From Candidatus Cloacimonadota bacterium (GTDB lineage Bacteria > Cloacimonadota > Cloacimonadia > Cloacimonadales > DAONDQ01), in contig DAONDQ010000003.1 of assembly GCA_035402645.1 (NCBI GenBank), positions 2,682-66,681 of the forward strand: DNA of 64,000 nucleotides, in the 5' to 3' direction. This document shows positions 4,874-29,311 of the stretch, in pieces. The first letter of the stretch is position 1; each line of letters starts with the position of its first letter. Both the position numbers and the translations under genes were made by a program. The notes under the pieces are model-generated. The model worked only from the letters and a program-made list of their open reading frames with translations. It made no database searches and was not told where the DNA came from.

Positions 4874-4912
4874 TTTTTGATTTCAATCTCAGGAATAGGT
4901 CGGGAGGACCAA

Positions 4913-7390
4913 ATGGAATATCCATTCGAAGTAATCGAGAAAAAATGGCAGAAGAAATGGAAGGAAAAGCGTATATTCAACGCCGTAGACTTCAGTGACA
5001 AGCCGAAATACTATGTTTTAAACATGTTCCCTTATCCATCAGGTGCTTTGCACATGGGGCATGTTTCCAATTATTCCATCGGTGATGCCATTACCAGGTT
5101 CAAGTTGATGCAAGGTTATAATGTAATGCAGCCCATGGGCTATGATGCATTCGGAATGCCGGCAGAGAACTTTGCCATTCAGCATAATTCACATCCGAGA
5201 CTGACCACTGAAAAGAACATGGAGATCATGGGTAAGCAGTTCGAAGATTTCGGATTCGGTATCGACTGGGACAGACCTGTTGCTACCTGTAAACCTGAAT
5301 ATTATAAATGGGGACAGTGGCTCTTCAAGAAACTCTATGAAAATGGATTAGCATATAAAAAGACCTCTTTCGTGAACTGGTGTGATGAATGCCAGACTGT
5401 GCTTGCCAATGAACAGGTGGAAGATGGTAACTGCTGGAGATGCGGAACTGTCGTGCGTCAAAAGGAATTGGAGCAGTGGTTCTTCCGTATCACGAAATAT
5501 GCAGAGGAATTGCTTGATTTCTCGCACATGATTGATTGGCCCGAACGCGTCATGGTTATGCAGGAGAACTGGATCGGCAAGAGTTTCGGAACTGAGATAT
5601 TCTTCAAACTGGAAAATTCTGATACCATCATCAAGGTATTTACGACAAGACCCGATACAATATTTGGCGTAACCTTCATGGCACTTCCTCCGGAGCATCC
5701 ACTGGTGAGGGAATGGTTGGAAAAGGAGCCTGCTGACAGCAAGTTAAGGGTTTTCTGCGATAAAGTGATCAATGAAGACAAGATCAATCGTACTTCCGAA
5801 GATACAACCAAGGAAGGTGTATTTTCCGGTCGTTATTGTATAAATCCGGTCAATGGAGACAAGGTACAGATCTGGATTACCAATTATGTCCTCATGGATT
5901 ATGGCACCGGGGCTGTTATGGCGGTGCCTGCACATGATCAGAGAGATTTTGAATTCGCAGGGAAATATGATATTCCAATGAAGATCGTGATTCAGAATGA
6001 GGATCAGGATCTGGTGCTCGAAAAGATGAAAAAAGCCTACACTTCACCCGGATATATGGTGAATTCAGAGAAATTCAACGGTCTTGCCAGCAACATGGCA
6101 AAAGAAAAGATAACACAATGGCTGCAATTGGAGAATTACGGGAGTGGTACGGTTACCTATCGCCTGCGCGACTGGGGTGTTTCCAGGCAGCGTTACTGGG
6201 GAAATCCAATCCCTGTGATCTATTGTGACCACTGCGGTGTTGTTCTTGTTCCCGATGAGGACTTGCCTGTACTTCTTCCAGAAAATGTACAGATTGGAAA
6301 GACCACACAGAATCCGCTACTTTCAGTTCCAGAATGGATCAACGTTCCGTGCCCGAAGTGTGGTGCACCCGCAAGACGGGAGACCGATACCATGGATACA
6401 TTCGTGGATAGTTCATGGTATTATGCCAGATATACTGATCCAAAGAATGACAACAAGCCATTCGATACAGCCAAGAGTGATTACTGGCTGCCTGTAGACC
6501 AATATATAGGCGGAATCGAGCATGCCTGCATGCACTTGCTGTATGCACGCTTCTTCCATAAATTCATGAGAGACATTGGGCTTGTGAAGTCGGACGAACC
6601 TTTTGCACGTCTGCTGACACAGGGAATGGTGACCAAGGACGGGGCTAAAATGTCCAAGTCCAAGGGAAATACAGTAGATCCCCAGACCTACCTGGATCGT
6701 TTTGGTTCAGATACGGCTCGCGTATTCATGCTATTTGCCTCACCTCCTGAAAAGGATGTGGAATGGAATGACGATGGTGTCGTGGGAGCTTTCCGCTTCC
6801 TGAATCGAATCTGGAGATTGATCGAATCTCAGCAGGAATTGATTCGCAAGCATTATGACCTGCTTGCAGAGCATGATGATTTGAGAAAAGAGATTGCTGA
6901 TCTTCGTTACAGCACTCATTTCATGATACGGAAATGGAATGAGGATATCGAGAACAGGATGCAGTTCAATACTGCCATCGCTGCCATCATGGAGCACTTG
7001 AATAATGTGACGAACATCAAGCAACCTGATGCACTCACGAACGTCGAAAAGGCTGTATATGCCGAAGCATGTATTATGATGCCTCGCCTGCTGTATATCT
7101 TTGCTCCCCATATTTCGGAAGAACTCTGGTCAATGCTTGGAAACGAAACCTTCATTCATGAAGCAGGTATTCCCACTCATAAGGAAGAGTATCTGGTCAA
7201 AGACCTCATTACCTATGTCATACAGGTTAACGGCAAGGTGAGGGGTAAGTTAAGCGTTTCACCAGACATTGAGAATGAAGACTTGGAAAGACAGGCTGTC
7301 ACGAATGAAAATGTAGCCAAGATGTTGGAAGGACATCAGGTGAAGAAGATATTCATCGTACCGAACAAGCTTGTAAATATCGTGATATAA
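4913..7390 (+). CDS. leuS: leucine--tRNA ligase
   Basis: N-terminus MEYPFEVIEKKWQKKW. HIGH-type motif PYPSGALHMGH, KMSKS motif, and the Zn-type CP1 region CDECQTVLANEQVEDGNCWRCG. GGGAGG lies upstream of ATG 4913. The TTG at 4877 in the track is rejected as the start. Confidence 0.97.
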   Translation: MEYPFEVIEKKWQKKWKEKRIFNAVDFSDKPKYYVLNMFPYPSGALHMGHVSNYSIGDAITRFKLMQGYNVMQPMGYDAFGMPAENFAIQHNSHPRLTTEKNMEIMGKQFEDFGFGIDWDRPVATCKPEYYKWGQWLFKKLYENGLAYKKTSFVNWCDECQTVLANEQVEDGNCWRCGTVVRQKELEQWFFRITKYAEELLDFSHMIDWPERVMVMQENWIGKSFGTEIFFKLENSDTIIKVFTTRPDTIFGVTFMALPPEHPLVREWLEKEPADSKLRVFCDKVINEDKINRTSEDTTKEGVFSGRYCINPVNGDKVQIWITNYVLMDYGTGAVMAVPAHDQRDFEFAGKYDIPMKIVIQNEDQDLVLEKMKKAYTSPGYMVNSEKFNGLASNMAKEKITQWLQLENYGSGTVTYRLRDWGVSRQRYWGNPIPVIYCDHCGVVLVPDEDLPVLLPENVQIGKTTQNPLLSVPEWINVPCPKCGAPARRETDTMDTFVDSSWYYARYTDPKNDNKPFDTAKSDYWLPVDQYIGGIEHACMHLLYARFFHKFMRDIGLVKSDEPFARLLTQGMVTKDGAKMSKSKGNTVDPQTYLDRFGSDTARVFMLFASPPEKDVEWNDDGVVGAFRFLNRIWRLIESQQELIRKHYDLLAEHDDLRKEIADLRYSTHFMIRKWNEDIENRMQFNTAIAAIMEHLNNVTNIKQPDALTNVEKAVYAEACIMMPRLLYIFAPHISEELWSMLGNETFIHEAGIPTHKEEYLVKDLITYVIQVNGKVRGKLSVSPDIENEDLERQAVTNENVAKMLEGHQVKKIFIVPNKLVNIVI

Positions 7391-7392
7391 AC

Positions 7393-8298
7393 TTAAGATA
7401 ACATTTGTTTAAAAGAAGCATCCCTGGGGTGCTTCTTTTTTTCTCTCATCATCAAGAACAATCCAACCAGGGCGGGAAGTACACCCGTAATAATGAAGAT
7501 GGTCAGTGAAGCAGTGACCGCATACTCTCCCCTGATTCCGTAACGCTTGAAAATATGAACCGCAAAGGTCTCCCTCAATCCAAGCCCCGAGAACGTAATG
7601 GGAATCGTATTCGCAAACAGCACAAGCGAAGAGGAGATCGCTACTTTATCAAAGCGAATCGGATAGAATGTATTCAAAATGATCCAATATTGGATGAACG
7701 TGAAAAAGACTGTAATGATCTGGTTCAGCATGACCAGGGGCGCTGCTTTCCTGTATTCCTGTCGGAGTGGTTCCAGGTTCGGTCTGAGTCGCATTGCAAA
7801 GTATAGACCAAGTGGAGAAAAGGTAATCAGCAAGGCGGCGATCAGCTTCAATGGCAGTGAAAATGAATAGAAATAAAAGAAAGTTGCCCAGATAGCAAAG
7901 AACCAGTTCGTCCAAGTGAGAAAGAACTTCTCCATAAGAATGGAAAAGAAGGTCTTCCTTTTACTTGTGTTCTCGATAAAAAAGACTTTTCCAAAGCTGG
8001 CATGTCCACCGGGTATCAGGAATCCGAGCGCGAGACCAATAAGGTAGGATTTGAATATTTGTCTCTTACGTGAAGAAAAGCCTGGATTCAGATGAAGCAT
8101 CATTTTCCAATTCCGATATTGAAGATACAGCTTGATGCAGGTTGTCACGACTAACAGAAAAAAGGTGAATAAACTGAATTTCATGAAATTGGCAGCCACG
8201 ACCTGCATGTCCATCTTCCTGAAAATAAAATACAGGATGACGATGGAAATAGCCAATTTCAAAAGAAATTCAAGCCTTTTCCTGGTTACGCTTTCCAT
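7393..8298 (-). CDS. flippase-like polytopic membrane protein (UPF0104 / lysyl-PG-synthase TM-region family)
   Basis: About 8 TM helices. The N-terminus KRLEFLLKLAISIVILYFIFRKMD and the loops PGGHASFGK and PITFSGLGLRE are typical of this family. It overlaps the upstream GT2 gene by 13 nt. Confidence 0.55.
   Translation of the reverse strand: MESVTRKRLEFLLKLAISIVILYFIFRKMDMQVVAANFMKFSLFTFFLLVVTTCIKLYLQYRNWKMMLHLNPGFSSRKRQIFKSYLIGLALGFLIPGGHASFGKVFFIENTSKRKTFFSILMEKFFLTWTNWFFAIWATFFYFYSFSLPLKLIAALLITFSPLGLYFAMRLRPNLEPLRQEYRKAAPLVMLNQIITVFFTFIQYWIILNTFYPIRFDKVAISSSLVLFANTIPITFSGLGLRETFAVHIFKRYGIRGEYAVTASLTIFIITGVLPALVGLFLMMREKKKHPRDASFKQMLS
7414..7442 (+). terminator. rho-independent terminator of leuS
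   Basis: AGAAGCATCC-CTG-GGGTGCTTCT forms a 10-bp stem including one G-U pair and is followed by T7. It lies inside the last codons of the convergent gene 7393..8298. Confidence 0.75.
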
Positions 8299-9326
8299 TT
8301 TGCCTTTACGAATAAGCTGATGATGGAGAAGAAAATCGCATAATATGGATATACCAGAAGAAAAATGTAATCCAGTGGGTGGAATCTCTCATGATGGATG
8401 ATCAGTGAACATGAATAAAACAGGTATATAGGGAGAATAATGCCTGCTAAATAAACCCAGTTCATGTGATGAACAAGCAGGAACGGCAGAAAAATAAAGA
8501 AGGCAAAAACCAAAGCCGTGAAAAGTATATAGTAGGTTGACGAAAGCTTGATCTTCCCATACTGTCTGATCTCTCTATCAAGCAATTGTTTGAAGGTGTA
8601 TTTTTGATTCTGCTCGATCATTGTCTCATCGGAATTATAACCGATTTTATAATCTAACTGATGCATCTTTTTCAGTAACAGCTTGTCATCACCTGCATGG
8701 AAATCACCCAAGCCTTCATGACCGCCTATGTCTTCATACACAAAGCGTCTGATTGCTATATTTGCACCGGAACAACTGAATGGAATTCCCATGCCCACGG
8801 TGGAGCAGAAAAGACCGGATGAGAATATCCGTTTTACGCGATAAATAAGAGATAGGTGTTTCATCCTTACATAACCGATTACCATTCCAATGATTGTGTA
8901 GAAGTAGCTGTTATAAGATGAAATCCAATGAACTGGAACTTCCGTATCAGTATCGGTGAATAATAAAATATCCTTCGTTGCATGTTTTGCTGCAAGAGTA
9001 AGTGCTTGTCGCTTCCCCTTTCCTATCTTTTCACTTTCTTTCACTTGGAAAACCTGTATGTTGTTTTTCTCATTTGCGAACTCATTCATTTGATTGAACG
9101 TATCATCCGATGAAGCATCATCAACAAGAATTATTTCGTATAGCTCAGTTGGATAATCAAGAGCTTTCAGAGAAGCAAGGAATCCTGGTAATCTTTCCGA
9201 TTCGTTTCTTCCCACTGCGATAATTGAATATGTATGTTGCAAGGGAGTGTTTGTTTTCCATTTCCTGAACATGGCAAAGCTCATGTTCAATAGGATAATC
9301 ACATAAATCAGAAGAATAACATCCAT
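8286..9326 (-). CDS. membrane-embedded family-2 glycosyltransferase
   Basis: IIAVGRNESERLPGFLASLKALDYPTELYEIILVDDASSDDT, LFTDTDTEVP, GANIAIRR and DDKLLLKK match GT2 motifs. One N-terminal TM helix and several C-terminal ones give a processive-synthase-like layout. Confidence 0.8.
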   Translation of the reverse strand: MDVILLIYVIILLNMSFAMFRKWKTNTPLQHTYSIIAVGRNESERLPGFLASLKALDYPTELYEIILVDDASSDDTFNQMNEFANEKNNIQVFQVKESEKIGKGKRQALTLAAKHATKDILLFTDTDTEVPVHWISSYNSYFYTIIGMVIGYVRMKHLSLIYRVKRIFSSGLFCSTVGMGIPFSCSGANIAIRRFVYEDIGGHEGLGDFHAGDDKLLLKKMHQLDYKIGYNSDETMIEQNQKYTFKQLLDREIRQYGKIKLSSTYYILFTALVFAFFIFLPFLLVHHMNWVYLAGIILPIYLFYSCSLIIHHERFHPLDYIFLLVYPYYAIFFSIISLFVKAKWKA

Positions 9327-9327
9327 A

Positions 9328-10893
9328 TTAGAATTCTGTTCGATAGCTGAATGTAAAATCCTGTTTCCAGTTCGTTTCCTGTGTTTTGTTCATCATAGTT
9401 CCGATACGGAAATAATGATGCGTCAGCGGATGCAATTCCATGTATGCTTTGATGCTTGTTGTATCTGTTATTTTTCCTGCCAGCCAATGCGTCTTGGTTG
9501 TCTGAGTATTAGGAATCAACGCAGGGTCGCTTGTATTTAACGTAAAACTGTTCCCCGTACTGCCCTGCCTTGTATAGGAAGCATTTACACCCAGTGATAA
9601 TGGAAGATAATTGAACCAGTAATCAATCTCAGTGGAGTAATTCAGGCAGTTGGAGCCAAGTGGATAACCGAGGGCAATACCATCATTCGAGAACTTATTC
9701 CACCTGATAAAGTGGGTATATGTCCATGGTCTGACGGCAGTCATCTCAATATTAATGCGCGGAGGAAGAAAAAGTGTTATCGGTATTCCGTGTAATTTTT
9801 CTCTAATCTGCTTATTTCTGCAATAGGATAGTCCTGCCTGCAAAGCATACTTGCTACCCCACCAGTCAGTCAGTATCTTGCTTTTAGAGAACTCATCCAG
9901 AAGCAGGTTATGATATAAAGAAAAGTCACTTTTGAATTTCCAATTGAATCCGCCGAATATGAGTACATTGTCCCTGTCTTCCAGGTTATGCTCAATGATT
10001 CTCCAGAACGCATGAGGCAGGATATAATTCAAATCCACACTTCGATTCCCGTAAATGATCTCTTCCCCGATGAATCCTTCAAAGCGGTCTGGGACAGGTT
10101 CCCAGGAAAGCTTATGCATCACGATGAACTTATCCACTCGCGAAGAATCTGAAGTTGCTGAACTTTGCGGTTGGTAATAGACAATTTCGTTTTTATCGGG
10201 TGTTAATGCTCCATGTACGTACTCGAGCTTTAGTGTCCCCAGTTTACATTGTGCTTTAAAATAACCAAAATCATTAGCTTCATCATTCAGAATAACACTT
10301 CCGCTGATATCATTACCCACATGGAACTTTCCTCTCCCGAAGGAAACACCAAGGGCTTCACTTCCGTAGTAGAGAGAGCCAGTCAAATGATCAATATAGA
10401 TGGTCTCATTATCCGGTTGCCTGAAACCCACTATTAATGGGGATTGCTCATAATAATGCCTGTCTCCCGTGAAGTGTCCAGCCCACCAGTCTCCATACAG
10501 AAACAGGCTATTAGCAATGAGAGACTCTACCCGTAGTCCTTTATACAGGAAGAAATAATAGTCTTGATTTCTCCTTTGATAATCGACACCACCCATGACA
10601 CGAATTTGCACGATTTGGACATCATTGGGTTTATAGGCAAAGAAGATACCTTCATCATCTGGTTTTGATAAGTACTGGTTGAAGGAGCGTTTGATCTTTT
10701 CGATGGATGATACTGCTATATAGGTTGAAGAATCAGGAATAAGTACTGTCCTGAATATTGGAAGTGTTGGTTCTTCTAAAATGGAAGGATAGACTTTTGT
10801 ATGAAATTGATAGTATGGACCCATTCCAAATAAAAAATCCTGCCCCAAAAAGAAGGAGCAGGATAATAAGATGATTATATATATACGCTTCAT
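9328..10893 (-). CDS. putative outer-membrane beta-barrel protein (tentatively Wzi-like)
   Basis: Signal peptide MKRIYIIILLSCSFFLG. Alternating-hydrophobic strands run throughout, and the terminal ...FTFSYRTEF carries a C-terminal Phe. The block SFGRGKFHVGNDISGSVILNDEAN recalls the capsule-assembly Wzi family. Confidence 0.45.
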   Translation of the reverse strand: MKRIYIIILLSCSFFLGQDFLFGMGPYYQFHTKVYPSILEEPTLPIFRTVLIPDSSTYIAVSSIEKIKRSFNQYLSKPDDEGIFFAYKPNDVQIVQIRVMGGVDYQRRNQDYYFFLYKGLRVESLIANSLFLYGDWWAGHFTGDRHYYEQSPLIVGFRQPDNETIYIDHLTGSLYYGSEALGVSFGRGKFHVGNDISGSVILNDEANDFGYFKAQCKLGTLKLEYVHGALTPDKNEIVYYQPQSSATSDSSRVDKFIVMHKLSWEPVPDRFEGFIGEEIIYGNRSVDLNYILPHAFWRIIEHNLEDRDNVLIFGGFNWKFKSDFSLYHNLLLDEFSKSKILTDWWGSKYALQAGLSYCRNKQIREKLHGIPITLFLPPRINIEMTAVRPWTYTHFIRWNKFSNDGIALGYPLGSNCLNYSTEIDYWFNYLPLSLGVNASYTRQGSTGNSFTLNTSDPALIPNTQTTKTHWLAGKITDTTSIKAYMELHPLTHHYFRIGTMMNKTQETNWKQDFTFSYRTEF

Positions 10894-10908
10894 ATTAATG
10901 CATATAAC

Positions 10909-12003
10909 TTAAAAATCACTGACCGATAGCAGTTTGACAGTCGCTTCCACTTCACTTTCAGAGATATGAAGTTCCTTCGCAATTTCCTTGTTACTCCAAC
11001 CGTCATGAATCAGTTTTACAATTGTTTTGCGTTTTGCTTCTTCATCGACAAAGATGGAAGGTTCTCTGCGTGGTTCATTATAAACTGTAAAGGTAGTTTT
11101 GGGTTTTGGTTCAGAACGTTTTGACTTGAGTATGATGATAATAATGATGAACAGGACTATGATCAGGGCTAAAGCCAACCAAAGTGGAATCAGGGTAGTC
11201 AGCAGTAGTTCAACAATACTAGGCTTTGCCGGCTTCGGCATTTTCACAGTCTGAAATGTAACAGCTTCTGTAGATGCCTGCGCTTGTGCCGGCTTCGGCT
11301 GCTGTGTAGCGACAGGTTGGGATAGGCTACTGTCGTAGTCACTATCGAAGAAATCATTCAAGGAAGATGAATCGTTTTGAATCTTATCTTTCAGGGTTTG
11401 CACAAACTGATATTCTCTCGAGTCTGCAGGAACTTTTTCCAATCTTGCCAGAGCCTGGCTGTATTTCTTCAATCCTGCCAAATCCTTGGCTATATAGTAA
11501 TTGACCTGCTTCTTATCCGGAAAGGTGGATTCAAGGTTCACATAAAGGGGTAGTGCTTTGGCAAATTGATGCGTGGCAAAATAGAAGTTGGCGGTTCCCA
11601 ATCCTGCTTCAAAAGTTTTCGGCAGGTTTTTGGGGAATATATCGAGAACTAGTTTATACCCTTCCTCATCCAACCTCATTTCTTCCCTGCGAACAGGCTC
11701 AGCTGTCTGAATGCTAATTTCAATGCCTGATTTCCCGGTTGAAACAAGAATTGAATGTAATATCTGGCTTCTATCGATGCGTGGTTCCACAAAACCTGCA
11801 CCTTTCGCAGCACTTGGTATCTTAATCACTAATGTATTGGTTGCGGTATTGTTCTCAATCTGGTATTCAACACGACTGCTGAATACAATGACAGTACGAT
11901 TCACATAAGAATAATCATGTGTCTTGATTACCTTGAGTGAAGGCACCGCCAACAGACTGCCCACGAGAATAAGCGCGATTAGGATAAGAAGAAACTTTCG
12001 CAT
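10909..12003 (-). CDS. membrane-spanning regulator: signal/anchor + AMIN-like domain + TPR-like region + TM helix + C-terminal LuxR/sigma-r4-type HTH
   Basis: N-terminal MRKFLLILIALILVGSLLA. AMIN-like segment VIVFSSRVEYQIE...LVIKIP...YKLVLDIFPK. A Q/P/A-rich linker precedes the TM helix LLLTTLIPLWLALALIIVLFIIIIIIL. The tail GWSNKEIAKELHISESEVEATVKLL is an HTH. Confidence 0.6.
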   Translation of the reverse strand: MRKFLLILIALILVGSLLAVPSLKVIKTHDYSYVNRTVIVFSSRVEYQIENNTATNTLVIKIPSAAKGAGFVEPRIDRSQILHSILVSTGKSGIEISIQTAEPVRREEMRLDEEGYKLVLDIFPKNLPKTFEAGLGTANFYFATHQFAKALPLYVNLESTFPDKKQVNYYIAKDLAGLKKYSQALARLEKVPADSREYQFVQTLKDKIQNDSSSLNDFFDSDYDSSLSQPVATQQPKPAQAQASTEAVTFQTVKMPKPAKPSIVELLLTTLIPLWLALALIIVLFIIIIIILKSKRSEPKPKTTFTVYNEPRREPSIFVDEEAKRKTIVKLIHDGWSNKEIAKELHISESEVEATVKLLSVSDF

Positions 12004-12126
12004 TTGCTACTCCTTGGCAGTGGATAATCCTGTTTTTTTATTAATGAATTTTACAGATTTCCGTCAAGAATTATTTGCCGCACCCGGTCATGTCAACTGA
12101 ACGAAACAATCCGCAAATATGTACTT

Positions 12127-12612
12127 TTATCTGCTGTTCAGTACTTTATCAAGGAGGTTATAAGTCTCTCTGACGTTTTCAAATAATTCACGGTAATTTG
12201 CATCTCTGTCAATTTTCATCCCCACCACTTTCCTGTCTACATTGGTCTCCCCCCAATTGTAAGCAGCGATGGCAAGGCTCCAATTATGATTGTACTTATT
12301 CAAGAGATATCTCACGTATTGAGCGGAAATCCTGATGTTGTAATAGGGAAAGTAAAGTGAACCCTTACGATAATTCGGATCCAAATACCTGGCAGTTCCT
12401 TCTCGAACCTGTCCAGGCCCAAGGGCTTTCTGTTTGGAAATTGCCAAACTCCTGAATGTGCTTTCCTGGCTGATCAGGCGATAAAAATACTTGGCATTCA
12501 GATCGTAGTGATGCGCCTGCCAGATAACGATCAGCCTGACTGTAAAAGGATTATACAGCAGAATGACAATTGTCAGGATAATGAACAGGAACCAGATAAT
12601 GAATGCTTTCAT
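12127..12612 (-). CDS. lytic transglycosylase (SLT domain), membrane-anchored
   Basis: N-terminal TM helix. The catalytic-type motif ISQESTF, then GPGQV and AAYNWGETNV, match the goose-lysozyme-like SLT family. 4-nt overlap with the upstream TPR gene. Confidence 0.8.
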   Translation of the reverse strand: MKAFIIWFLFIILTIVILLYNPFTVRLIVIWQAHHYDLNAKYFYRLISQESTFRSLAISKQKALGPGQVREGTARYLDPNYRKGSLYFPYYNIRISAQYVRYLLNKYNHNWSLAIAAYNWGETNVDRKVVGMKIDRDANYRELFENVRETYNLLDKVLNSR

Positions 12613-13262
12613 TTTTTCAGTTTGTGCCTTAAAAAGATGATATTACGCTTAATACGTTCATTCTCCGGATCGAGACTCAACGCTTTTTCAAAATAGCTGA
12701 GGATCTCTTCATATGGACGTTCAAGAGAAATCAAAATAGCCCCTATATTATTGGGAATCTGTGGATTGGAAGGGTCAAAGGATTCCGCTTCCTTTAAGTG
12801 TTCCAGCGCTTCGATCAAATGACGGTTCTCCACTTCTGCCTGTGCCTGGTTCACCAGCTCTTTTGCACAAACATTCTTTTCCCTTTGAATCGGGTCTTCA
12901 ATCATTACCAGGTACTTCTGGTAGGAAATATTGGTTGGATGCTGCTCACTCAATTTCCGATAACATTGCATGGCTTCATCCCAGTTCCTGAGCATCAGTT
13001 GTGTCTGCGCATAGGCAAGAAGCGCCATCTCGTTATCGGGAACAGCAGACAACACCTTATGCAGATAGGAAGCAGCATCTTCATATTTAAGCAGACTCAG
13101 AAGAATGATGCCCATGTCATACTGGTGCACCGTGGTATTTGCTATCATCAGGACTTTCTGCATCCAGTTATAGGCTTTCTGATATTTACCCTTCATCATG
13201 CAGGTAATACCCTTGTAGTGGTAATATTTCATACGGAAGTAATCGAATAGGTCTTTCAGCAT
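12609..13262 (-). CDS. tetratricopeptide-repeat protein
   Basis: Several 34-aa TPR units (YQKAYNWMQKVL, YEDAASYLHKVL, WDEAMQCYRKL, LIEALEHLKEAESFDPSNPQIPNNIG). Confidence 0.75.
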   Translation of the reverse strand: MLKDLFDYFRMKYYHYKGITCMMKGKYQKAYNWMQKVLMIANTTVHQYDMGIILLSLLKYEDAASYLHKVLSAVPDNEMALLAYAQTQLMLRNWDEAMQCYRKLSEQHPTNISYQKYLVMIEDPIQREKNVCAKELVNQAQAEVENRHLIEALEHLKEAESFDPSNPQIPNNIGAILISLERPYEEILSYFEKALSLDPENERIKRNIIFLRHKLKK

Positions 13263-13272
13263 AATGTTTCCA

Positions 13273-14517
13273 TTATCTCAATTTATTGACCATAATGCGT
13301 TTGCTTGGAGTGAGAAATTCCTCACTTGCCCTACGAATGCTCTGCGTAATCTCATCATTAGAGATATCAAGCAAATGCCCTATCTCATAAATGCGCGTTT
13401 TTTCACTACTTTCCAGCCTTCCATCTAAAAGAGCGATGGGAATCAGCCTTTCAAAGATAATGAACTTCTCTCCGTCATGCAATTCGGCAAAATGTCTGCA
13501 TATCGCCTCAGTCCGACGCTTCAGATCGTCCAAATCCCTGAAACTCAGGTAAAGTTCAGGTTGAGTAGTATAGTCTGCAAGCCATTCAAAGAGCATCTTC
13601 CATTCTTTTTCCCCCACTTCGCCGCCTGCCATGGCAAGATAGTAACCTGCTGTTGAGATGAGTTCCACTATCTTCTTGTCTTTTTCCTTCTTGGGATGAA
13701 TCTCGAGGAGGTTCAGCAGCTCCATGTTCTGCTCCAGGAGAACTTTCCTGGAAATGGGATTGGGCTGTTTCTGCAATGGGTAAATCTCGGAATTAGAGAA
13801 GAGTTCCAGATTCCTGATGCGAACCAAATGATTGGGATGTGTGGAAACTGTATCGCCCATGGCAATTTCACGTATCTTGTCCAACTGCTTCAGATATTCG
13901 TCTACATCGAAGCAGAGAATCTCTTCCGATACACCCGATGCAAACTTGAAGAAGCACTTGCCGATCACCTTGATATCAGGCATGGCAAGAAAGCCAATCC
14001 TGTCCGATGTGCTCTCCGCATATCGCTGCCAACGCATGAAATTCAATGCGATGATGGCTGGAATTTCTTCATTTTCACGATTTGCCAATATCCTGTTCAC
14101 CACATCCAACTGACTGTGCTTATAAATCAAATGTCCAATCTCATGCCCTATCACGAACCGCAATTCATCATCACCCAGTAAATTGATGAGAGATGAAGTA
14201 AAACAGATCATATGCGGTACAATGTTGAAGCCGTTAATGGAAAATGCATTCACTTCCGGTGAAGCCTGGAGATAAAAATCAATATCTTCATGAAAATCGA
14301 GAAATTCAGACACTTCCCTGCATATATCATATAAGCGCGGAGCGATAACCCGATTCAATTTCACAGTGTGAGAAAGCAGATAATTGGTAATATCCTCGAG
14401 TTCATCTTTATTATCGAATATGTCATAATAACTCGAAAGAGCAAAATCCTCTTCCAACATTCTTACCAGTTCTGTATCTGCTTCAAAACGCAGGTTCTCA
14501 TAATTGAATTTCGCCAA
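13273..14517 (-). CDS. soluble M48-family Zn-metallopeptidase with C-terminal TerB-like helical domain
   Basis: The HEXXH motif in FVIGHEIGHLIYKHSQ, with a downstream ESTSDRIG, is M48-like. No TM helices were seen. The C-terminal about 130 aa (EKEWKMLFEWLADY...EKTRIYEIGHLLDISNDE) resembles TerB/DjlA-N type domains. Confidence 0.65.
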   Translation of the reverse strand: MAKFNYENLRFEADTELVRMLEEDFALSSYYDIFDNKDELEDITNYLLSHTVKLNRVIAPRLYDICREVSEFLDFHEDIDFYLQASPEVNAFSINGFNIVPHMICFTSSLINLLGDDELRFVIGHEIGHLIYKHSQLDVVNRILANRENEEIPAIIALNFMRWQRYAESTSDRIGFLAMPDIKVIGKCFFKFASGVSEEILCFDVDEYLKQLDKIREIAMGDTVSTHPNHLVRIRNLELFSNSEIYPLQKQPNPISRKVLLEQNMELLNLLEIHPKKEKDKKIVELISTAGYYLAMAGGEVGEKEWKMLFEWLADYTTQPELYLSFRDLDDLKRRTEAICRHFAELHDGEKFIIFERLIPIALLDGRLESSEKTRIYEIGHLLDISNDEITQSIRRASEEFLTPSKRIMVNKLR

Positions 14518-14914: not shown

Positions 14915-16345
14915 ATGAAAAGATTATTCTCTTATCTTACTTTGTTCCTGCTGCTTACAACAGCAATGGCAATAGAAAATACCGCTCAGACACTCCCTCA
15001 GCAAACAACTGAAATACAGCAGATCAGGGATTATTATACTCCAGTACAGGGATTAACGGGAACAGCCCTGAAGACTGGTTTACATAACCTGATCTCGACA
15101 AATACATATTCAAGTTACGACGGTGCCAAAACCATCATGTTCCAGGATCTCGACAATAATAATGGCGTTGTACGTTGTGTTTACACCGGTCAGGATTTCA
15201 CCATTACTTCCGATTATAACGGTTCTTCAAGTCCCAATACAGAGCATACTTATGCCCAAAGCTGGTTCACAGCTTCTGCCTCTGTTGAGAAAGCTGATTT
15301 GCACCATCTCTTCGTTACAGAATCAACAGTCAATTCTTCCCGTGGAAATCTTCCTTTCGGAAAGGTAATTACTCAAACCACTACCTATTCAACATATAAT
15401 GGTTATGTAAGTAAGAGAGGGACGGATTTTAACAGCCAGACAGTCTTTGAACCTGCTGACCAACATAAAGGTGATTGCGCAAGAGCTCTTTTGTATTTTA
15501 ATGTGAGATATAATGAAACCCTCACACAGGCAAGTGTCGACATGCTTCCCGCGTGCCTGCAATGGAACCTGCTGGATCCTCCAACTGCTGCAGAAGTGAC
15601 CCGAAATACTGCGATCCAGTCCACTCTGACCAACCGTAATCCATTTGTGGACCATCCTGAATATGTGAATTCCATCTGGTTGGGAACAACCAATAATACG
15701 ATGCTGAATTTCTCTTCTGCTTCTGCTTCAGTCGCTGAGAATGTCGGCACCACCCAACTGACCATTCAGATTCTGCATCAGAATGTTTATGCATCCAATG
15801 CTCAAGTGTATCTGGTCAGCGGTAATGCAGCTCATATCGGTAACTTTACTCCTGTTACCATCAACTTTCCGATGAACAGCAGTACTCCGCAAACAGTTAC
15901 GATCAATGTTACCGATGATAACATCGTGGATGGAAATGAAACCTTTGTGTTTGGTATTAAGAACGCTTCCGGTGGTTATTATGCCATTCCCGGTCTGCAA
16001 AGCACTTTTACACTGACGGTTCAGGATGACGATGTTATCGCGAATGATGATAACACTGCTGTTACAGGTATATTTGGAATTCAATCGGTTTACCCAAATC
16101 CTTTCAACCCTGAAACCAATATCAACTACAATGTGAGCAAGGCTGAACATGTCTCATTGGTCGTTTTTAATGTTAGAGGTCAGAAAGTGAAAACCCTGGC
16201 ATCTGGTTCCATGGCTTCAGGCAGCTATGATACCAAGTGGAACGGAACCGATGAAAATGGTACTCCTGTCAGCAATGGCATATATTACCTCAAGATGCGC
16301 GAGGGTAATAAGATTTCTTTGAAAAAGATCGTTTTGATTAAATAA
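14915..16345 (+). CDS. secreted endonuclease I family nuclease + Calx-beta-like domain + T9SS sorting domain
   Basis: Signal peptide. Endonuclease-I blocks NTEHTYAQSWF, DLHHLFVTESTVNSSRGNLPFG, FEPADQHKGDCARALLYFNVRY and NRNPFVDHPEY. Calx-beta-like VTDDNIVDGNETFVFGI. The CTD VYPNPFNPETNINY...GIYYLKMREGNKISLKKIVLIK starts near 16088. Confidence 0.9.
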   Translation: MKRLFSYLTLFLLLTTAMAIENTAQTLPQQTTEIQQIRDYYTPVQGLTGTALKTGLHNLISTNTYSSYDGAKTIMFQDLDNNNGVVRCVYTGQDFTITSDYNGSSSPNTEHTYAQSWFTASASVEKADLHHLFVTESTVNSSRGNLPFGKVITQTTTYSTYNGYVSKRGTDFNSQTVFEPADQHKGDCARALLYFNVRYNETLTQASVDMLPACLQWNLLDPPTAAEVTRNTAIQSTLTNRNPFVDHPEYVNSIWLGTTNNTMLNFSSASASVAENVGTTQLTIQILHQNVYASNAQVYLVSGNAAHIGNFTPVTINFPMNSSTPQTVTINVTDDNIVDGNETFVFGIKNASGGYYAIPGLQSTFTLTVQDDDVIANDDNTAVTGIFGIQSVYPNPFNPETNINYNVSKAEHVSLVVFNVRGQKVKTLASGSMASGSYDTKWNGTDENGTPVSNGIYYLKMREGNKISLKKIVLIK

Positions 16346-16540: not shown

Positions 16541-19500
16541 ATGAAACATCCGCAAAGCATTATCTTACTATTCCTGACCTTGCTGGTATCCTCTGCATTT
16601 GCACTCGATATCAGTAGTGGAGCCACGATCACGGAAGGCTTCAATGTAATGACTGCCCCGGTTAGCACATTACCAACAGATTGGAGAATTGATAAGATTA
16701 CGACAGTCCGTACCGTGGGAACCTATGCTGCAGCAGGCACAGCCACGGAACGAAGCGCCGGCAACAGTATGGCAACCACCGCAGCGAATGGTATCTATAA
16801 CTTTGGTGCAGGTGATGCAGCATCAGCAACCGATAGAGCACCGGGATGGTTATCTTCCAGTTCTGCAACCAAAAGCGGAAATCTCTATTTAAGATTAGTC
16901 AATGCTGGTTCTTCTTCAATTGGAAGTTTCACGATTTCTTATGATGTAGAAAAATATAGGAATGGTACTAATGCAGCCGGTTTCACAATCCAGATGTTCT
17001 ATTCAACCGATGGATCAACTTGGACAAATGCCGGTAGTGATTTCCAGACTGTTTTTCCAGGAGCAGATGCTGATAATGCAGGCTTTACTTCTGCTCCAGG
17101 TTCTACGGTATCTGTTTCACTCAAACCCCTCACACAACCTTTGACTGCAACGCAAAACATCTATCTTGCATGGAATTACTCTGTTACAAGCGGTTCCACC
17201 ACCAGTAATTCCCAAGCATTGGGAATTGATAATGTGATCATTTCAGCGGTTCCAGCAGGACCTTCTGTACCAACATTGACAACTGTCGCTGTTACAGGCA
17301 TTACTCAATCATCTGCAATCACCGGTGGTAACATCACTTCCAATGGTGGTTCTGATATTAGCTCCAAAGGCGTATGTTGGAATACGACAGGTAATCCTAC
17401 CATTGCTGATGGCTTAACCTTTGACGGTACTGGTATTAGCAATTATGTGAGTACCATAGATGGACTGGCACCTTCCACTTTATATTATGTAAAAGCTTAT
17501 GCAGCCAATGCCATGGGTGTTGGATATGGTAATGAATTATCATTCACGACCAGCGGAACCACTCCCCCAACCGCACCCGTTGCCTTGGATGCTACGGCCA
17601 TTACAACGGATTCTTTCACTGCCAATTGGAACTCAGTCTCGGATGCCACTTCCTATAGATTGGATGTATCAACATCCGGTACATTTGATGTATTCGTAAG
17701 CGGTTACCATGATTTGACAGTGACAGGACTTTCACAGGCTGTGAGCGGGTTAACCCCAGCCACACCGTTTTACTACAGAGTTCGAGCTGTTAATTCAAAT
17801 GGAACCAGTGAAAATTCCAATGTGATATATGTGCAAACAGCCAATATACCTGTGATACCGGATGCTCCAGTTGCGATTGCAGCCACGGGTCTCGCTTCCA
17901 CTGGCTTTACTGCCAACTGGAATGCTTCGAATGGTGCAACCAGCTATCGTTTGGATGTATCAATGTCAGATACATTCGCTTCCTTTGTCACTGGATACCA
18001 GGATTTGACTGTAAACGGTCTTTCACAGACAGTCAGTGGTTTGGCACCTTTATCGGTCTACTTCTACCGTGTTCGTGCGTTTAACGCAGCAGGAACAAGT
18101 TTTAATTCGAACCCGATCATGGTACAAACAACGGAAGCTGCTTCAACAATCCTCACTGAAGGATTTGAAGGTTCCACGACTGCTGCTCCGCCAGTAGGCT
18201 GGACTCTTTCCAGTCCGGGATCCTACATCCTTTCGAATGTAGCAAATGCACACGGAGGTACATGCTACGGTGGTTTGAATGCTCTCAATGGATGGATCAG
18301 TACACCTCAATTGGATAATCCCACTGAAATGACCTTCTGGTGCAGAGCATCGGGAACAACATCCAATTTCACCATATCCATCCAGAATTCGGCTAATGGA
18401 ACAGATTATACGGATGTAACGACTTTTGTAGCCAATGGTACCGATACAGGATCCATTACCAGCACATACACACAGAAATCCGTCAGCCTGAATCTCACAG
18501 GAAGTAATTATCTGCGCTGGTTTGTATCAGTTAGAACCGGTGGAAGTTTCTACTTTGACGATGTAGTGGTCAATGGAGGATCAGTTACCCCAGTCCTGCC
18601 TTCCATCCCAGTGGCTTCTGATGCAAGTTCCATTACGGCAACAAGCTTTACAGCAAATTGGATAGCCTCCACGAATGCATCTTACTATCGCCTGGATGTA
18701 TCAACTTCGAGTAGTTTCAATTCCTTTGTTACCGGATTCAATGATCTGGTTGTTACCGGATTGTCACAAGCCGTCACTGCTTTAGATCCTGAAACATTCT
18801 ATTATTATCGTGTCCGTGCAGCAAATACTGTCGGAACAAGCGACAATTCAAATATTGTTCAAGTCTATACAACAAGCAATCCTGTCATTCCAAATGCTCC
18901 TGTTGCTACACAGGCAACCAGTATTTCCGCCATCACATTTACAGCCAATTGGAATGCAGTTACAACTGCAACCGGCTATAGACTCGATGTATCCGCTTCT
19001 CCCACTTTCGGTTCCTACATCAGCGGGTATCAGGATTTGGCAGTGGATGGAGTTTCCCAGGTAGTCACCGGATTATCTGCTCTTTCTACTTATTATTACA
19101 GAGTACGTGCGGTGAATAATGCCGGGACAAGTACAAATTCCAACAGCATTTCAGTTACTACTACCAATACTGACCCCTATAACGGATATTACAACCCTGT
19201 CGTGGGATTGACCGGGAATGCGCTGAAAACAGGTTTAACAAACCTGATCAGCACCAATACCTATAGCAGTTATGATGGTGCGAAACTCATTATGTTCCAG
19301 CAGTTGGATAATCATAATGGTGTGGTAAGATGCGTCTACACAGGGCAGGATTTTTCAATTGCCCCAGATTATAACGGATCATCCAGTCCAAACACGGAGC
19401 ACACCTATGCTCAAAGCTGGTTTACAGGTCCTGCTTCCGTGGAGAAGGCTGACCTTCATCACCTCTTCGTCACAGAGTCAACCGTCAATTCTTCACGAGG

Positions 19501-20776
19501 AAATCTTCCCTTCGGAAAGGTGATCACCACCGCAACCACATACGCCAGTTACAATGGATATGTCAGCAAGCGTGGAACTGATTTCAACAGCCAGACAGTG
19601 TTTGAACCTGCTGACCAGCATAAAGGTGACTGTGCCCGTGCGCTGTTGTACTTTAATGTACGCTATGGTGAATCCTTGACCATAGGGGGAGTTGATCAGC
19701 TTCCTGCCTGTATCCAATGGAATTATCTCGATCCGCCAAATGCGGATGAAATTGCCAGAAATACATTGATCCAGGCAACATTAACCAATCGCAATCCATT
19801 CGTTGATCATCCGGAATATGTGACTTCCATTTACGTTGGGACAACAAGTAATACGATGCTGAATTTCGATCCTACAGTTTCTTCTGTTTCCGAAAATGTG
19901 GGTACGGTTCATCTTTCGGTACAAATTCAAAATCCGAATGTATATGCTTCCACGGCAACAGTGGTCCTTAAAAGTGGAAATCCAGCCCATATAGGCAACT
20001 TCACGCCTGTAACCGTTACATTCCCCATGAACAGCGCCACACCTCAAATAGTGGATATTAACGTTACTGATGACGATATCGTAGATGGTAATGAAACCTT
20101 CGTGTTTGAGATACAGAATGCTCAAGGGGGTTATTATGCAATACCCGGACTGGCGAATGACTATACTCTGACCGTTGAAGATAATGAAACAGGTATCCAG
20201 GTTCCGATTGCCCTGCCCGCAGTGCAAATGGGCAATACTGCCTTCCTGGCACATTGGGTGGCACCAAACGGAATCACTTCCTTTGCCCTGGATGTTGCTC
20301 ATGACAATGGTTTTACCAACTTCCTCTCAGGATTCAATAACCTGATCGTAAATGATACAACATATTCTGTGACCGGATTGGTAGAGGGACAAACCTATTA
20401 TTACCGTGTTCGTTCCATCCTTAACGATGTACAAAGCACAAATTCAAATGTCATTACAATCATACTGACTGGTAATCAAGACCATGTAGTGAATAGTCTT
20501 AGAGCCGGTATTGAATCCGTATATCCCAATCCCTTCAATCCCGAGACAACCATCAAATACAATGTTACAAAACCCGGTGATGTGAGCATTGTTATTTACA
20601 ATGTCAAAGGACAGAAGGTTAGGACTCTTGTAGCCGATCATTTGAATTCCGGTTCCTATACTGTGAAATGGGATGGCAATAATGATAAGGGGCAATCCTG
20701 CAGCAGCAGCGTTTATTACCTGAAGATGCAGGAAGGTAATAAGATATCACTTAAAAAGATCGTTCTAATGAAATAA
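16541..20776 (+). CDS. large secreted multidomain nuclease: two choice-of-anchor-J-like domains, five FN3 modules, endonuclease I, Calx-beta-like, T9SS sorting domain
   Basis: Signal peptide MKHPQSIILLFLTLLVSSAFA. ITEGFN.../ILTEGFEGSTTAAPPVGW domains. FN3 modules carry the FTANW...YRLDVS...YYYRVRA skeleton. Bases 19187-20188 are colinear with 15032-16033 of the upstream gene. The CTD starts near 20519. Confidence 0.9.
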   Translation: MKHPQSIILLFLTLLVSSAFALDISSGATITEGFNVMTAPVSTLPTDWRIDKITTVRTVGTYAAAGTATERSAGNSMATTAANGIYNFGAGDAASATDRAPGWLSSSSATKSGNLYLRLVNAGSSSIGSFTISYDVEKYRNGTNAAGFTIQMFYSTDGSTWTNAGSDFQTVFPGADADNAGFTSAPGSTVSVSLKPLTQPLTATQNIYLAWNYSVTSGSTTSNSQALGIDNVIISAVPAGPSVPTLTTVAVTGITQSSAITGGNITSNGGSDISSKGVCWNTTGNPTIADGLTFDGTGISNYVSTIDGLAPSTLYYVKAYAANAMGVGYGNELSFTTSGTTPPTAPVALDATAITTDSFTANWNSVSDATSYRLDVSTSGTFDVFVSGYHDLTVTGLSQAVSGLTPATPFYYRVRAVNSNGTSENSNVIYVQTANIPVIPDAPVAIAATGLASTGFTANWNASNGATSYRLDVSMSDTFASFVTGYQDLTVNGLSQTVSGLAPLSVYFYRVRAFNAAGTSFNSNPIMVQTTEAASTILTEGFEGSTTAAPPVGWTLSSPGSYILSNVANAHGGTCYGGLNALNGWISTPQLDNPTEMTFWCRASGTTSNFTISIQNSANGTDYTDVTTFVANGTDTGSITSTYTQKSVSLNLTGSNYLRWFVSVRTGGSFYFDDVVVNGGSVTPVLPSIPVASDASSITATSFTANWIASTNASYYRLDVSTSSSFNSFVTGFNDLVVTGLSQAVTALDPETFYYYRVRAANTVGTSDNSNIVQVYTTSNPVIPNAPVATQATSISAITFTANWNAVTTATGYRLDVSASPTFGSYISGYQDLAVDGVSQVVTGLSALSTYYYRVRAVNNAGTSTNSNSISVTTTNTDPYNGYYNPVVGLTGNALKTGLTNLISTNTYSSYDGAKLIMFQQLDNHNGVVRCVYTGQDFSIAPDYNGSSSPNTEHTYAQSWFTGPASVEKADLHHLFVTESTVNSSRGNLPFGKVITTATTYASYNGYVSKRGTDFNSQTVFEPADQHKGDCARALLYFNVRYGESLTIGGVDQLPACIQWNYLDPPNADEIARNTLIQATLTNRNPFVDHPEYVTSIYVGTTSNTMLNFDPTVSSVSENVGTVHLSVQIQNPNVYASTATVVLKSGNPAHIGNFTPVTVTFPMNSATPQIVDINVTDDDIVDGNETFVFEIQNAQGGYYAIPGLANDYTLTVEDNETGIQVPIALPAVQMGNTAFLAHWVAPNGITSFALDVAHDNGFTNFLSGFNNLIVNDTTYSVTGLVEGQTYYYRVRSILNDVQSTNSNVITIILTGNQDHVVNSLRAGIESVYPNPFNPETTIKYNVTKPGDVSIVIYNVKGQKVRTLVADHLNSGSYTVKWDGNNDKGQSCSSSVYYLKMQEGNKISLKKIVLMK
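17567..19162 (+). repeat. intragenic tandem FN3-encoding modules (4 copies; a fifth diverged copy at 20201-20461)
   Basis: In-frame modules of about 270 nt at 17567-17839, 17861-18130, 18602-18874 and 18893-19162. They share the pattern PVA..A..I....FTANW......YRLDVS....F...V.GY.DL.V.GLSQ.V.GL.....Y.YRVRA.N..GTS.NSN. Confidence 0.85.
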
Positions 20777-23997: not shown

Positions 23998-24590
23998 GAT
24001 GCCACCTCACTGTTCCTGTTCTTCATAATCTTCTGACCTGATTTTGAAAGGTTCTCCTCGTCTTCCAGGAAGCGCTTGATCTTACGGATTGCATCCTCGT
24101 AAGCCGGGATCTGGACTTTCTCATAGAGGTTCACTTTTTGGGTGGTCTTCTTTCTTACCTGGTCCAATATCCTCATTTTGCGGATATAGAACTGTCTTTC
24201 AATCGTGATGGCAGAAAGTTCTTCTATGATCTTGATACCGTCGAGATACCACTTCGGTCTGTTGAATACGCTGAACTCCGCATAATCATAGGTGATGTTA
24301 CCCATGATTGGGATCTTGACCCCTGCGATCTTCTTGGTGTGCATTTCAACGTTCCGAATGCTGATCAGTTTGGTATCGAATTCAGTCCAGAGACGCATGA
24401 ATTTCTCCAGGGCAGCTGTCTTTTGCTTTACCTTGGCTTCAAATTCAGTCGCCATATCACGGGCACGCTTCACTTCCATACGAAGGGCAGACTCCTTGTT
24501 CTTCAGGGTGGGAAGAGCACGCACTCTGACTCGCAACTGACGATTCAGGTCGTTCAAGGAAGTTTTGTTGTATTGAAAGCGTACTGCCAT
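23994..24590 (-). CDS. atpD: V-type ATPase subunit D (central stalk)
   Basis: 198-aa coiled-coil protein. LPTLKNKESALRMEV resembles the V-type D N-terminus. It sits between B and I in the operon. Confidence 0.8.
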   Translation of the reverse strand: MAVRFQYNKTSLNDLNRQLRVRVRALPTLKNKESALRMEVKRARDMATEFEAKVKQKTAALEKFMRLWTEFDTKLISIRNVEMHTKKIAGVKIPIMGNITYDYAEFSVFNRPKWYLDGIKIIEELSAITIERQFYIRKMRILDQVRKKTTQKVNLYEKVQIPAYEDAIRKIKRFLEDEENLSKSGQKIMKNRNSEVAS

Positions 24591-24601
24591 AATCTGAAAT
24601 C

Positions 24602-28526: not shown

Positions 28527-28531
28527 GGATT

Positions 28532-29143: not shown

Positions 29144-29311
29144 CGTCTTCTCCATTATTGCTTTTTCTCAAGTTTACTCAAAGACTAAAATCCAATTATA
29201 CTTGTCAATTGAAATTAAAGGGTTTATAATAAGTAGTGCTGTAGCGTTTTGCGGTATGAACCTGCCTGGACTTCCTGTTTAAATTTCTTCTTTTTTATTA
29301 TTCATTCTGAA

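Follow-up and report, generated by a model that had tools for sequence, protein, structure and literature searches.

The Wzi protein of Escherichia coli is an 18-strand outer-membrane lectin that holds group 1 capsule on the cell surface (PMC3791409). Sugar-bearing lipids come from HexSDF, which makes an aminohexosyl glycolipid in Clostridioides difficile (PMC10128005), and from GpgSDF, which makes GlcN (glucosamine)-phosphatidylglycerol in Pseudomonas aeruginosa with the help of a deacetylase located in the cytoplasm and a flippase of the UPF0104 family (PMC12713373). The PplT family is widespread, and its members are often encoded beside glycosyltransferases or fused to them (10.1101/2022.03.11.483950); neither HexF nor GpgF, both of them stand-alone PplT proteins, has been shown to act in flipping (PMC10128005, PMC12713373). 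Here we analyse a stretch of 64,000 nucleotides (nt) from Candidatus Cloacimonadota bacterium (GenBank assembly GCA_035402645.1, contig DAONDQ010000003.1, positions 2,682 to 66,681), referred to below as the window. Its minus strand carries a run of seven genes, four of which encode a Wzi-like barrel, a membrane glycosyltransferase of family 2 (GT2), a flippase-like protein and a protein with AMIN, tetratricopeptide repeat (TPR), transmembrane (TM) and helix-turn-helix (HTH) segments. With a probability of about 0.5, the functional unit is a core trio in the order barrel, GT2, flippase-like protein, preceded in this lineage by the AMIN-TPR-TM-HTH protein, which would make, flip and display a glycoconjugate.

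The Wzi-like barrel and its partner proteins

The four genes are:

9328-10893, minus strand: Wzi-like barrel, 521 amino acids (aa)
8286-9326, minus strand: membrane GT2, 346 aa
7393-8298, minus strand: LPG_synthase_TM flippase-like protein, 301 aa
10909-12003, minus strand: AMIN-TPR-TM-HTH protein, 364 aa

An initial annotation of this DNA, made by a model from the sequence alone, had called the 521-aa protein Wzi-like and had named its modelling as a barrel as a check. The protein has a signal peptide and ends in phenylalanine, and its AlphaFold2 model (54 homologues; predicted local distance difference test, pLDDT, 83.6; predicted TM-score, pTM, 0.84) is indeed a beta-barrel, with 18 long strands after residue 93. 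A Foldseek search against the Protein Data Bank (PDB) placed Wzi (2ynk) on top (E 7.5e-12, TM-scores 0.48/0.56), with the 18-strand OprD/Occ channels close behind and AlgE further down (query-normalised TM-score, TMq, 0.47). Because the OprD/Occ channels are nearly as good a match, the fold alone does not single out Wzi, and homology was tested by sequence. An exhaustive profile search with the barrel returned 2,926 cluster representatives at E ≤ 1e-3, corresponding to ∼ 2,900 clusters at 50% identity. Several of these relatives, at E values of 1e-45 to 1e-61, pass the Pfam gathering score for Caps_assemb_Wzi. An hhalign comparison of the barrel family with a Pfam-Wzi protein gave a probability of 99.2 (E 1.2e-19, 312 columns), and the two share the motifs IYGxR..YL.P....EH...DRDN, WWGNK and PW.YTH. 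Fold and profile homology thus both support the Wzi-like call of the initial annotation.

PF14052 itself is matched weakly by 5/55 members of the barrel family (best E 6e-5), one relative from Fidelibacterota/Marinimicrobia is named 'capsule assembly Wzi family protein' by NCBI, and a PDB sequence search with the barrel profile gave nothing meaningful. On the profile and model evidence we assign the barrel to the Wzi superfamily as a divergent member, not as a Pfam-defined one. The conserved loop motifs are EHNLxDRDN, WWGxKYA and RPWTYTH; the most conserved residues lie in long loops that would be extracellular. The N-terminal helical domain appears much reduced: DSSP analysis of the model finds a single 11-residue helix (64-74) and short turns before the barrel, and relatives outside the phylum keep a longer conserved N-terminal region. 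The NCBI record PLE74_00695 (498 aa, 100% identical) starts at an internal methionine and loses the signal peptide; the 521-aa start at 10893 (start region 10825-10893) agrees with the N-termini of the family. One distant relative (P0386) lies in a classical Wzc/aminotransferase/UDP-glucose-dehydrogenase locus, a gene context that links the barrel family to surface glycans generally.

For the GT2, the initial annotation had read one N-terminal and several C-terminal TM helices and a likeness to processive synthases, and the model agrees on both counts. In Pfam the protein matches Glycos_transf_2 (E 7e-16) and also scores over the cut-off for Glyco_transf_21. The AlphaFold2 model (pLDDT 92.9), from an alignment built with database homologues, shows a GT-A domain and an interface helix set between a single TM helix at the N-terminus and three at the C-terminus. 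Foldseek gave TMq values of 0.69-0.71 for hyaluronan synthase (HAS), 0.64-0.66 for BcsA, 0.61 for the 'minimal cellulose-synthase-like' PcManGT and 0.41-0.44 for GtrB/ArnC, i.e. the fold is that of processive membrane synthases. The window protein carries the motifs DDxS, TDTD (TDxD) and GDDK, and the family keeps DDxS, TDAD and GDDK. The QxxRW motif is degenerate, reading REIRQY in the window GT2 and QxKRxYGK in the Cloacimonadota family, where the W is not conserved; a homologue from outside the phylum keeps QRLRW. The longest-aligned NCBIfam match is HpnI (residues 49-297), far under its equivalog cut-off (46 vs 310 bits), and PgaC and NodC models match weakly. JGI names for the homologues read 'cellulose synthase/poly-beta-1,6-N-acetylglucosamine synthase-like'. 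We rejected a polyprenyl-phosphate glycosyltransferase of the GtrB/ArnC/DPMS type because of the much poorer fold match, and a true HpnI or PgaC equivalog because scores are far under the cut-offs. The profile and fold matches point to a GT21-like enzyme with a hyaluronan/cellulose-synthase-like fold.

The flippase-like protein is polytopic and matches LPG_synthase_TM (PF03706) over its full length (E 2.8e-19), with a weak match to the flippase-like domain TIGR00374; a PDB sequence search gave no match. Its gene overlaps that of the GT2 by 13 nt. These matches are consistent with the UPF0104/LPG-synthase-TM putative flippase of the initial annotation and assign the protein to the MprF flippase-domain type, i.e. 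to the UPF0104/PplT family.

The 364-aa protein, which had been called an AMIN-HTH protein, consists of a signal peptide, an AMIN-like domain (∼ 36-121), a short TPR segment (∼ 137-205), a low-complexity linker, a TM helix (∼ 272-298) and an HTH (∼ 322-358), an architecture that agrees with that call. In the window protein AMIN (PF11741) is sub-threshold (E 0.14, 12.7 bits vs a cut-off of 20.5, model positions 12-100 of 101); it is found in 12/28 family members, with a best E of 3.6e-6. TPR_19 is weak (E 0.0012), and the TPR part is missing in several family members. The C-terminal HTH lies at threshold (GerE 23.4 vs a cut-off of 23.5; HTH_23 and Sigma70_r4_2 likewise). From hidden Markov model evidence for the fold, we predict a bitopic protein with a periplasmic AMIN domain and a cytoplasmic C-terminal HTH. 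The HTH tail (∼ 315-358) also matches DUF6115 and the module that ends the 'SpiroCoCo' coiled-coil proteins of spirochaetes at their C-terminus (NF047515, E 8e-8), which suggests a small, widespread membrane-proximal HTH module.

Gene neighbourhood and the limits of the unit

Relatives of the barrel were found in 386 species genomes by a scan of one genome per species. Counts within the phylum refer to the best 80 of these, essentially all Cloacimonadota, and denominators are the loci with enough flank. The GT2 gene directly follows the barrel gene in 42/71 loci (31-57% protein identity, gaps mostly -4 to +9 nt), and GT2 and flippase-like genes lie together downstream of the barrel in 27/52. 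An AMIN-HTH gene stands directly upstream of the barrel in 29/67 loci, including some that have neither GT2 nor flippase-like gene, and its product is best regarded, from this gene order, as an accessory partner of the barrel. A further protein of 133-156 aa, with no Pfam match, a PRxYKLK motif and one TM helix, recurs in other barrel loci, which are often preceded by ackA and an AMIN-HTH gene.

Further genes accompany the trio in relatives. A polysaccharide deacetylase of carbohydrate esterase family 4 (CE4) lies between GT2 and flippase-like genes in 9/52 Cloacimonadota loci. These deacetylases have neither a signal peptide nor a TM helix and have a predicted cytoplasmic location, which fits action on a lipid-linked intermediate before flipping. 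A radical-SAM/SPASM gene follows in 19/52 loci, and some loci (L014, L021, L026) include FemAB/GNAT-type and hexapeptide acyltransferases.

Outside the phylum, metagenome loci were scanned with a 12-sequence subset of Wzi relatives, the 37-sequence alignment being too divergent as a seed. A GT2 and/or a flippase-like gene lies within three genes of the barrel in 34/60 usable loci. Unrelated metagenome contigs (L094/L095) encode a Pfam-positive Wzi, a GT21-like GT2 and an LPG_synthase_TM protein in the same order as in the window, at 27-30% identity to the window proteins (27% for the flippase-like protein). Elsewhere the order is permuted (wzi-gt2, gt2-wzi-flip, gt2-flip-gt2-deacetylase-wzi), and the trio is often accompanied by a cytoplasmic CE4 deacetylase. 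That the neighbours are kept despite this reshuffling is good evidence of functional coupling. The initial annotation had asked for a check of gene-neighbourhood conservation, and barrel, GT2 and flippase-like genes are syntenic across Cloacimonadota and beyond. The locus L091 (GCA_964387285.1, 1-13759) reads methyltransferase, radical-SAM/SPASM, flippase-like, GT2, Wzi, GT2, GT2, radical-SAM, DUF3108, GT2, radical-SAM. It holds four GT21-like GT2 and three radical-SAM genes (one with SPASM) and a gene for an unannotated 529-aa protein, and its product may be an elaborate form of the cassette's glycoconjugate.

Three more genes stand upstream of the four, across a gap:

13273-14517, minus strand: M48-TerB peptidase, 414 aa, TTG start
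12609-13262, minus strand: TPR protein, 217 aa
12127-12612, minus strand: lytic transglycosylase (SLT) protein, 161 aa
12004-12126, no strand: intergenic gap of 123 nt, junction between two gene blocks

M48-TerB is a soluble protein with a Peptidase_M48 domain (PF01435, E 9e-19) and an HEIGH motif. Its C-terminal TerB-like domain scores 18.6 bits in the window protein, under the cut-off of 24.4; PF05099 (TerB) is recorded for many members of the family, which is conserved in Cloacimonadota. The 217-aa protein matches TPR families in Pfam with E values down to 8e-20, has neither a signal peptide nor a hydrophobic N-terminal leader, and is probably cytoplasmic. The SLT protein (PF01464, E 3.5e-16) is of the membrane-anchored lytic transglycosylase type. 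A flagellar lytic transglycosylase was considered for it and rejected, since the match is weak and covers the domain only.

The initial annotation had joined all seven genes in one envelope-glycoconjugate module. Its seven minus-strand open reading frames are all present at the coordinates it gave, and nearly all of its domain calls hold. Of its junctions the overlaps and most of the gaps stand, but a second 10-nt gap does not, as seven genes have six junctions: from M48-TerB to the flippase-like gene these are a 10-nt gap, a 4-nt overlap, the 123-nt gap, a 15-nt gap, a 1-nt gap and the 13-nt overlap. The genes are co-directional and tightly spaced, and a promoter and terminator scan of the region found no terminator-like site in the 123-nt gap, so that read-through co-transcription would be possible. 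However, tight co-directional spacing is ordinary for bacterial operons and is therefore not evidence of a module; comparison with relatives decides. None of M48-TerB, TPR and SLT occurs within 9 kb of the barrel in 80/80 related Cloacimonadota loci. In the closest relative (M48 82%, TPR 69% and SLT 66% identical to the window proteins) the endonuclease genes and M48-TPR-SLT stand together, followed by RseP, TGT and others, and the AMIN-HTH–barrel–GT2–flippase–leuS block sits at a separate locus (L001). More distant relatives have M48-TerB alone, without TPR, SLT or barrel. This gene content indicates that two independently inherited blocks meet at the 123-nt gap and that M48-TerB, TPR and SLT form an unrelated neighbouring block outside the cassette. 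Because the TPR protein and M48-TerB have no export signals, they could not act as periplasmic scaffolds, and the earlier suggestion that SLT and a separate TPR protein replace the BcsC/PgaA/AlgK scaffolds fails because neither gene belongs to the unit. We regard a seven-gene module as hardly credible. The case is a caution, in that tight co-directional spacing made two unrelated blocks look like a seven-gene 'module'.

The 123-nt gap holds a good Shine-Dalgarno sequence (AAGGAG) for the 364-aa gene and TTGACA-like hexamers. Promoter-like sites in the region are at chance level (19 vs 21 expected), and terminator-like sites number 10 (4.9 expected). A terminator-like 10-bp GC-rich hairpin with a T-run (10837-10864, minus strand) lies 30 nt past the barrel start codon, in the region coding for the signal peptide, and could be an attenuator or a chance occurrence. 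The seven-gene run is flanked on one side by the convergent leuS (4877-7390, plus strand). A perfect 13-bp hairpin with T-runs on both sides (7411-7439) falls within the final codons of the flippase-like gene, close downstream of where leuS stops (7390), and is probably a bidirectional terminator common to both converging transcription units. The other flank is a divergent gene for an endonuclease I with a type IX secretion system (T9SS) tail (14915-16345). It is one of two adjoining genes (14915-16345 and 16541-20776) for secreted Endonuclease_I proteins with Calx-beta/fn3 modules, a pair that is kept beside M48-TerB in the closest relative. Both endonucleases and an LVIVD-repeat T9SS cargo protein (740-2923) carry the C-terminal T9SS domains FlgD_ig and Por_Secre_tail. 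At 22207-29155 (minus strand) lies an apparent V/A-type ATPase operon, of which Pfam identified the I, A and B subunits.

Proposed function and its rivals

Our proposal builds on the gene structure, the domain and fold assignments, the homology of the barrel with Wzi and a neighbourhood conserved inside and outside the phylum; from these we infer an acceptor lipid, a sugar, flipping activity, a barrel ligand and physical contact between the parts. The cassette probably yields a sugar-bearing lipid or a short glycan, which is flipped across the inner membrane and handled at the outer membrane. The GT2, with its catalytic domain on the cytoplasmic face, would transfer a hexose or an N-acetylhexosamine (HexNAc) from a nucleotide sugar to a membrane lipid; alternatively, it would build a short lipid-linked glycan. 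The MprF-type flippase-like protein, translationally coupled to the GT2 through the gene overlap, would move the product to the periplasmic leaflet, and the Wzi-like barrel would bind it, anchor it or expose it on the surface. The AMIN-TPR protein is predicted to tie the cassette proteins to peptidoglycan and perhaps also to the barrel; through its cytoplasmic HTH, transcription may respond to the state of the envelope. A dedicated flippase, together with the signal-peptide-less CE4 deacetylase of relatives, favours a small lipid-linked intermediate at the cytoplasmic face over a polysaccharide, which is the less economical product.

Several observations weigh against this proposal. No path between inner and outer membrane is encoded at the locus. 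The window barrel has no Pfam match at E ≤ 0.1 and stays under the PF14052 gathering score. The best structural matches of the GT2 are processive polymer synthases and not lipid monoglycosyltransferases; no GT21 entry (ceramide glucosyltransferase or HpnI type) is among the 50 PDB matches listed, so that the fold search is probably unable to tell processive synthases and lipid glycosyltransferases of one clan apart. In ∼ 40% of Cloacimonadota loci the barrel has no adjoining GT2 or flippase-like gene, and in such loci (L039-L079) the conserved 133-156-aa protein follows the barrel instead (137 aa; e.g. L079, 8153-8566); the barrel may thus serve a broader function. Among the 60 loci outside the phylum a GT2 is present in 30/60 and a flippase-like gene in 12/60, many loci having barrel-GT2 pairs without the latter. 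The deacetylase and radical-SAM genes of relatives have no counterpart in the 64-kb window.

Part of this evidence would suit a minimal synthase-dependent exopolysaccharide pathway of four genes, which we consider unlikely. A processive GT2 like HAS or the poly-N-acetylglucosamine (PNAG) and cellulose synthases would make and extrude the polymer, the flippase-like protein would contribute a lipid primer or additional TM helices, the scaffold role of AlgK or the BcsC TPR would fall to the AMIN-TPR protein, and the barrel would be an exit or anchor like AlgE or PgaA. The closeness of the GT2 fold to HAS and BcsA (TMq 0.64-0.71), the JGI homologue names, the weak PgaC and NodC matches, the presence of the 18-strand AlgE among the barrel matches, the periplasmic TPR segment of the 364-aa protein and the commonness of barrel-GT2 pairs outside the phylum all fit. 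However, the channel-forming synthases HAS and BcsA have six or more TM helices and this GT2 has four, and the W of QxxRW is not conserved in its Cloacimonadota family. Neither the seven proteins nor the conserved neighbours include a PilZ, PgaD, Alg44 or PelD-type receptor for cyclic di-GMP (c-di-GMP) or a periplasmic modifying enzyme, and the associated deacetylase, by prediction a cytoplasmic protein, differs in this from PgaB and IcaB. No flippase would be needed by a self-translocating synthase, the TPR part is short and inconstant in its family, and the lumen of Wzi, a lectin, is closed and does not form a channel for a polymer. If instead the GT2 made a short HexNAc oligomer, as in a NodC/NodB-like route, CE4 would deacetylate it in relatives, an acyltransferase might acylate it, the flippase-like protein would export the lipo-oligosaccharide and the barrel would receive it. 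NodC has a 1+3 TM topology and a synthase-like fold, both of which the GT2 shares; the weak NodC model match, the signal-peptide-less deacetylase adjoining the GT2 in relatives and the acyltransferases in L014, L021 and L026 point the same way. Yet similarity to NodC is limited to the generic N-terminal GT-A half, the window has neither a deacetylase nor an acyltransferase, and no NodA or NodIJ homologues were seen. This route appears distinctly improbable.

The loci without a GT2 raise another question, namely whether the barrel is linked to the other genes at all. GT2 and flippase-like protein might modify an inner-membrane lipid only, as HexSF/GpgSF, with the barrel a general, phylum-wide porin-like protein in an inherited gene order. 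The spread of the barrel over 386 species genomes, its frequent separation from GT2 and flippase-like genes, the nearly equal fold match of the OprD/Occ substrate channels and the position of one relative (P0336) among unrelated housekeeping genes would all be explained. Set against this, the genes remain neighbours outside the phylum, at 27-30% identity and even where their order has been shuffled, the gaps of ∼ 1 nt that separate barrel and GT2 point to units of co-translation, and the Wzc-type capsule locus of P0386 speaks for surface glycans rather than general diffusion. We consider the absence of a barrel-linked module improbable and prefer the cassette for a flipped, surface-displayed glycoconjugate.

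A more far-reaching version of the cassette proposal is tentative, and we think it unlikely to hold in full. In it, barrel, synthase-fold GT2 and PplT would form a minimal envelope-spanning route and so add a new class to the Wzy-, ABC- and synthase-dependent pathways of surface-glycan assembly. A small synthase in the membrane would make a lipid-anchored glycan, PplT rather than Wzx, an ABC transporter or the synthase would take it through the inner membrane, and display at the outer membrane would fall to a Wzi-family barrel. Such a route would be widespread in Cloacimonadota, in Marinimicrobia-like and in other uncultivated diderm lineages. If true, the new class would give a function to a large uncharacterised branch of the Wzi superfamily (∼ 2,900 clusters at 50% identity).

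Comparison with known systems

Anaerobic digesters and sediments harbour abundant Cloacimonadota and relatives of theirs, which are uncultivated and have a cell surface that is almost unstudied. The analysis places a 'hypothetical' family found in 386 species genomes in the Wzi superfamily and finds it, across phyla, in the company of a synthase-fold GT2 and an MprF-type flippase, defining a three-gene cassette suited to heterologous expression. The component families and the synthase-plus-flippase principle are already known. In the searchable literature on the component Pfam families and on Wzi in these phyla we found no description of the cassette, and the pairing with a Wzi-family barrel and the use of a synthase-fold GT2 in such a cassette appear to be undescribed there. 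Should the product be a surface glycolipid or a lipid-anchored glycan, the HexSDF/GpgSDF principle would extend to diderms with an outer-membrane partner, and the cassette would help to find out what is moved by PplT flippases.

Like Wzi (E. coli K30/Klebsiella/Acinetobacter; PF14052; 2ynk), its best structural match, the window barrel is an 18-strand outer-membrane barrel by prediction; the two are homologous at profile level through intermediates, and both are encoded next to surface-glycan biosynthesis genes. In contrast to Wzi, it is under every Pfam threshold, is ∼ 13% identical to 2ynk and has the apparently much reduced N-terminal helical domain described above. It has no wza-wzb-wzc neighbours and is paired with GT2, flippase-like and AMIN-HTH genes instead.

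With the Bcs, Pga and Alg systems and class I hyaluronan synthase, the cassette shares the GT2 fold (GT-A, interface and TM helices), an outer-membrane barrel (of 18 strands in AlgE) and a putative, weakly scoring periplasmic TPR element. It differs in that its GT2 has fewer TM helices and a degenerate QxxRW, in having a flippase-like partner and no c-di-GMP receptor, and in that the TPR belongs to the bitopic AMIN-HTH protein and is no part of the barrel, which is itself of the Wzi family and not of the BcsC, PgaA or AlgE type.

In the hopanoid glucosamine/cyclitol ether branch (HpnI/HpnK/HpnJ/HpnL) a GT2 is combined with a deacetylase, with a radical-SAM enzyme and with HpnL, a membrane protein of UPF0104, and all four kinds of component recur in the loci of relatives. 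In these loci the deacetylase is of the CE4 and not the YdjC type and the radical-SAM enzyme of the SPASM and not the B12-binding type, families other than those of the Hpn enzymes. The GT2 score (46 vs 310 bits for HpnI) sets the window protein apart, the Hpn system has no outer-membrane barrel, and no hopanoid genes were seen in the neighbourhood of the cassette.

Finally, HexSDF and GpgSDF, like the cassette, encode a glycosyltransferase with an MprF-flippase-domain (UPF0104) protein, and as in relatives of the cassette a deacetylase stands between the two, the relatives' enzyme being predicted to be cytoplasmic, as is GpgD. The glycosyltransferases are analogous and not homologous: that of the cassette is a polytopic GT2 with a synthase-like fold, whereas GpgS is a soluble GT4 and HexS is of the monogalactosyldiacylglycerol (MGDG)-synthase type. 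The window has no deacetylase and adds an outer-membrane barrel and an AMIN-HTH protein, and its lipid product is a prediction. By analogy, HexSDF and GpgSDF offer the closest characterised logic for the cassette.

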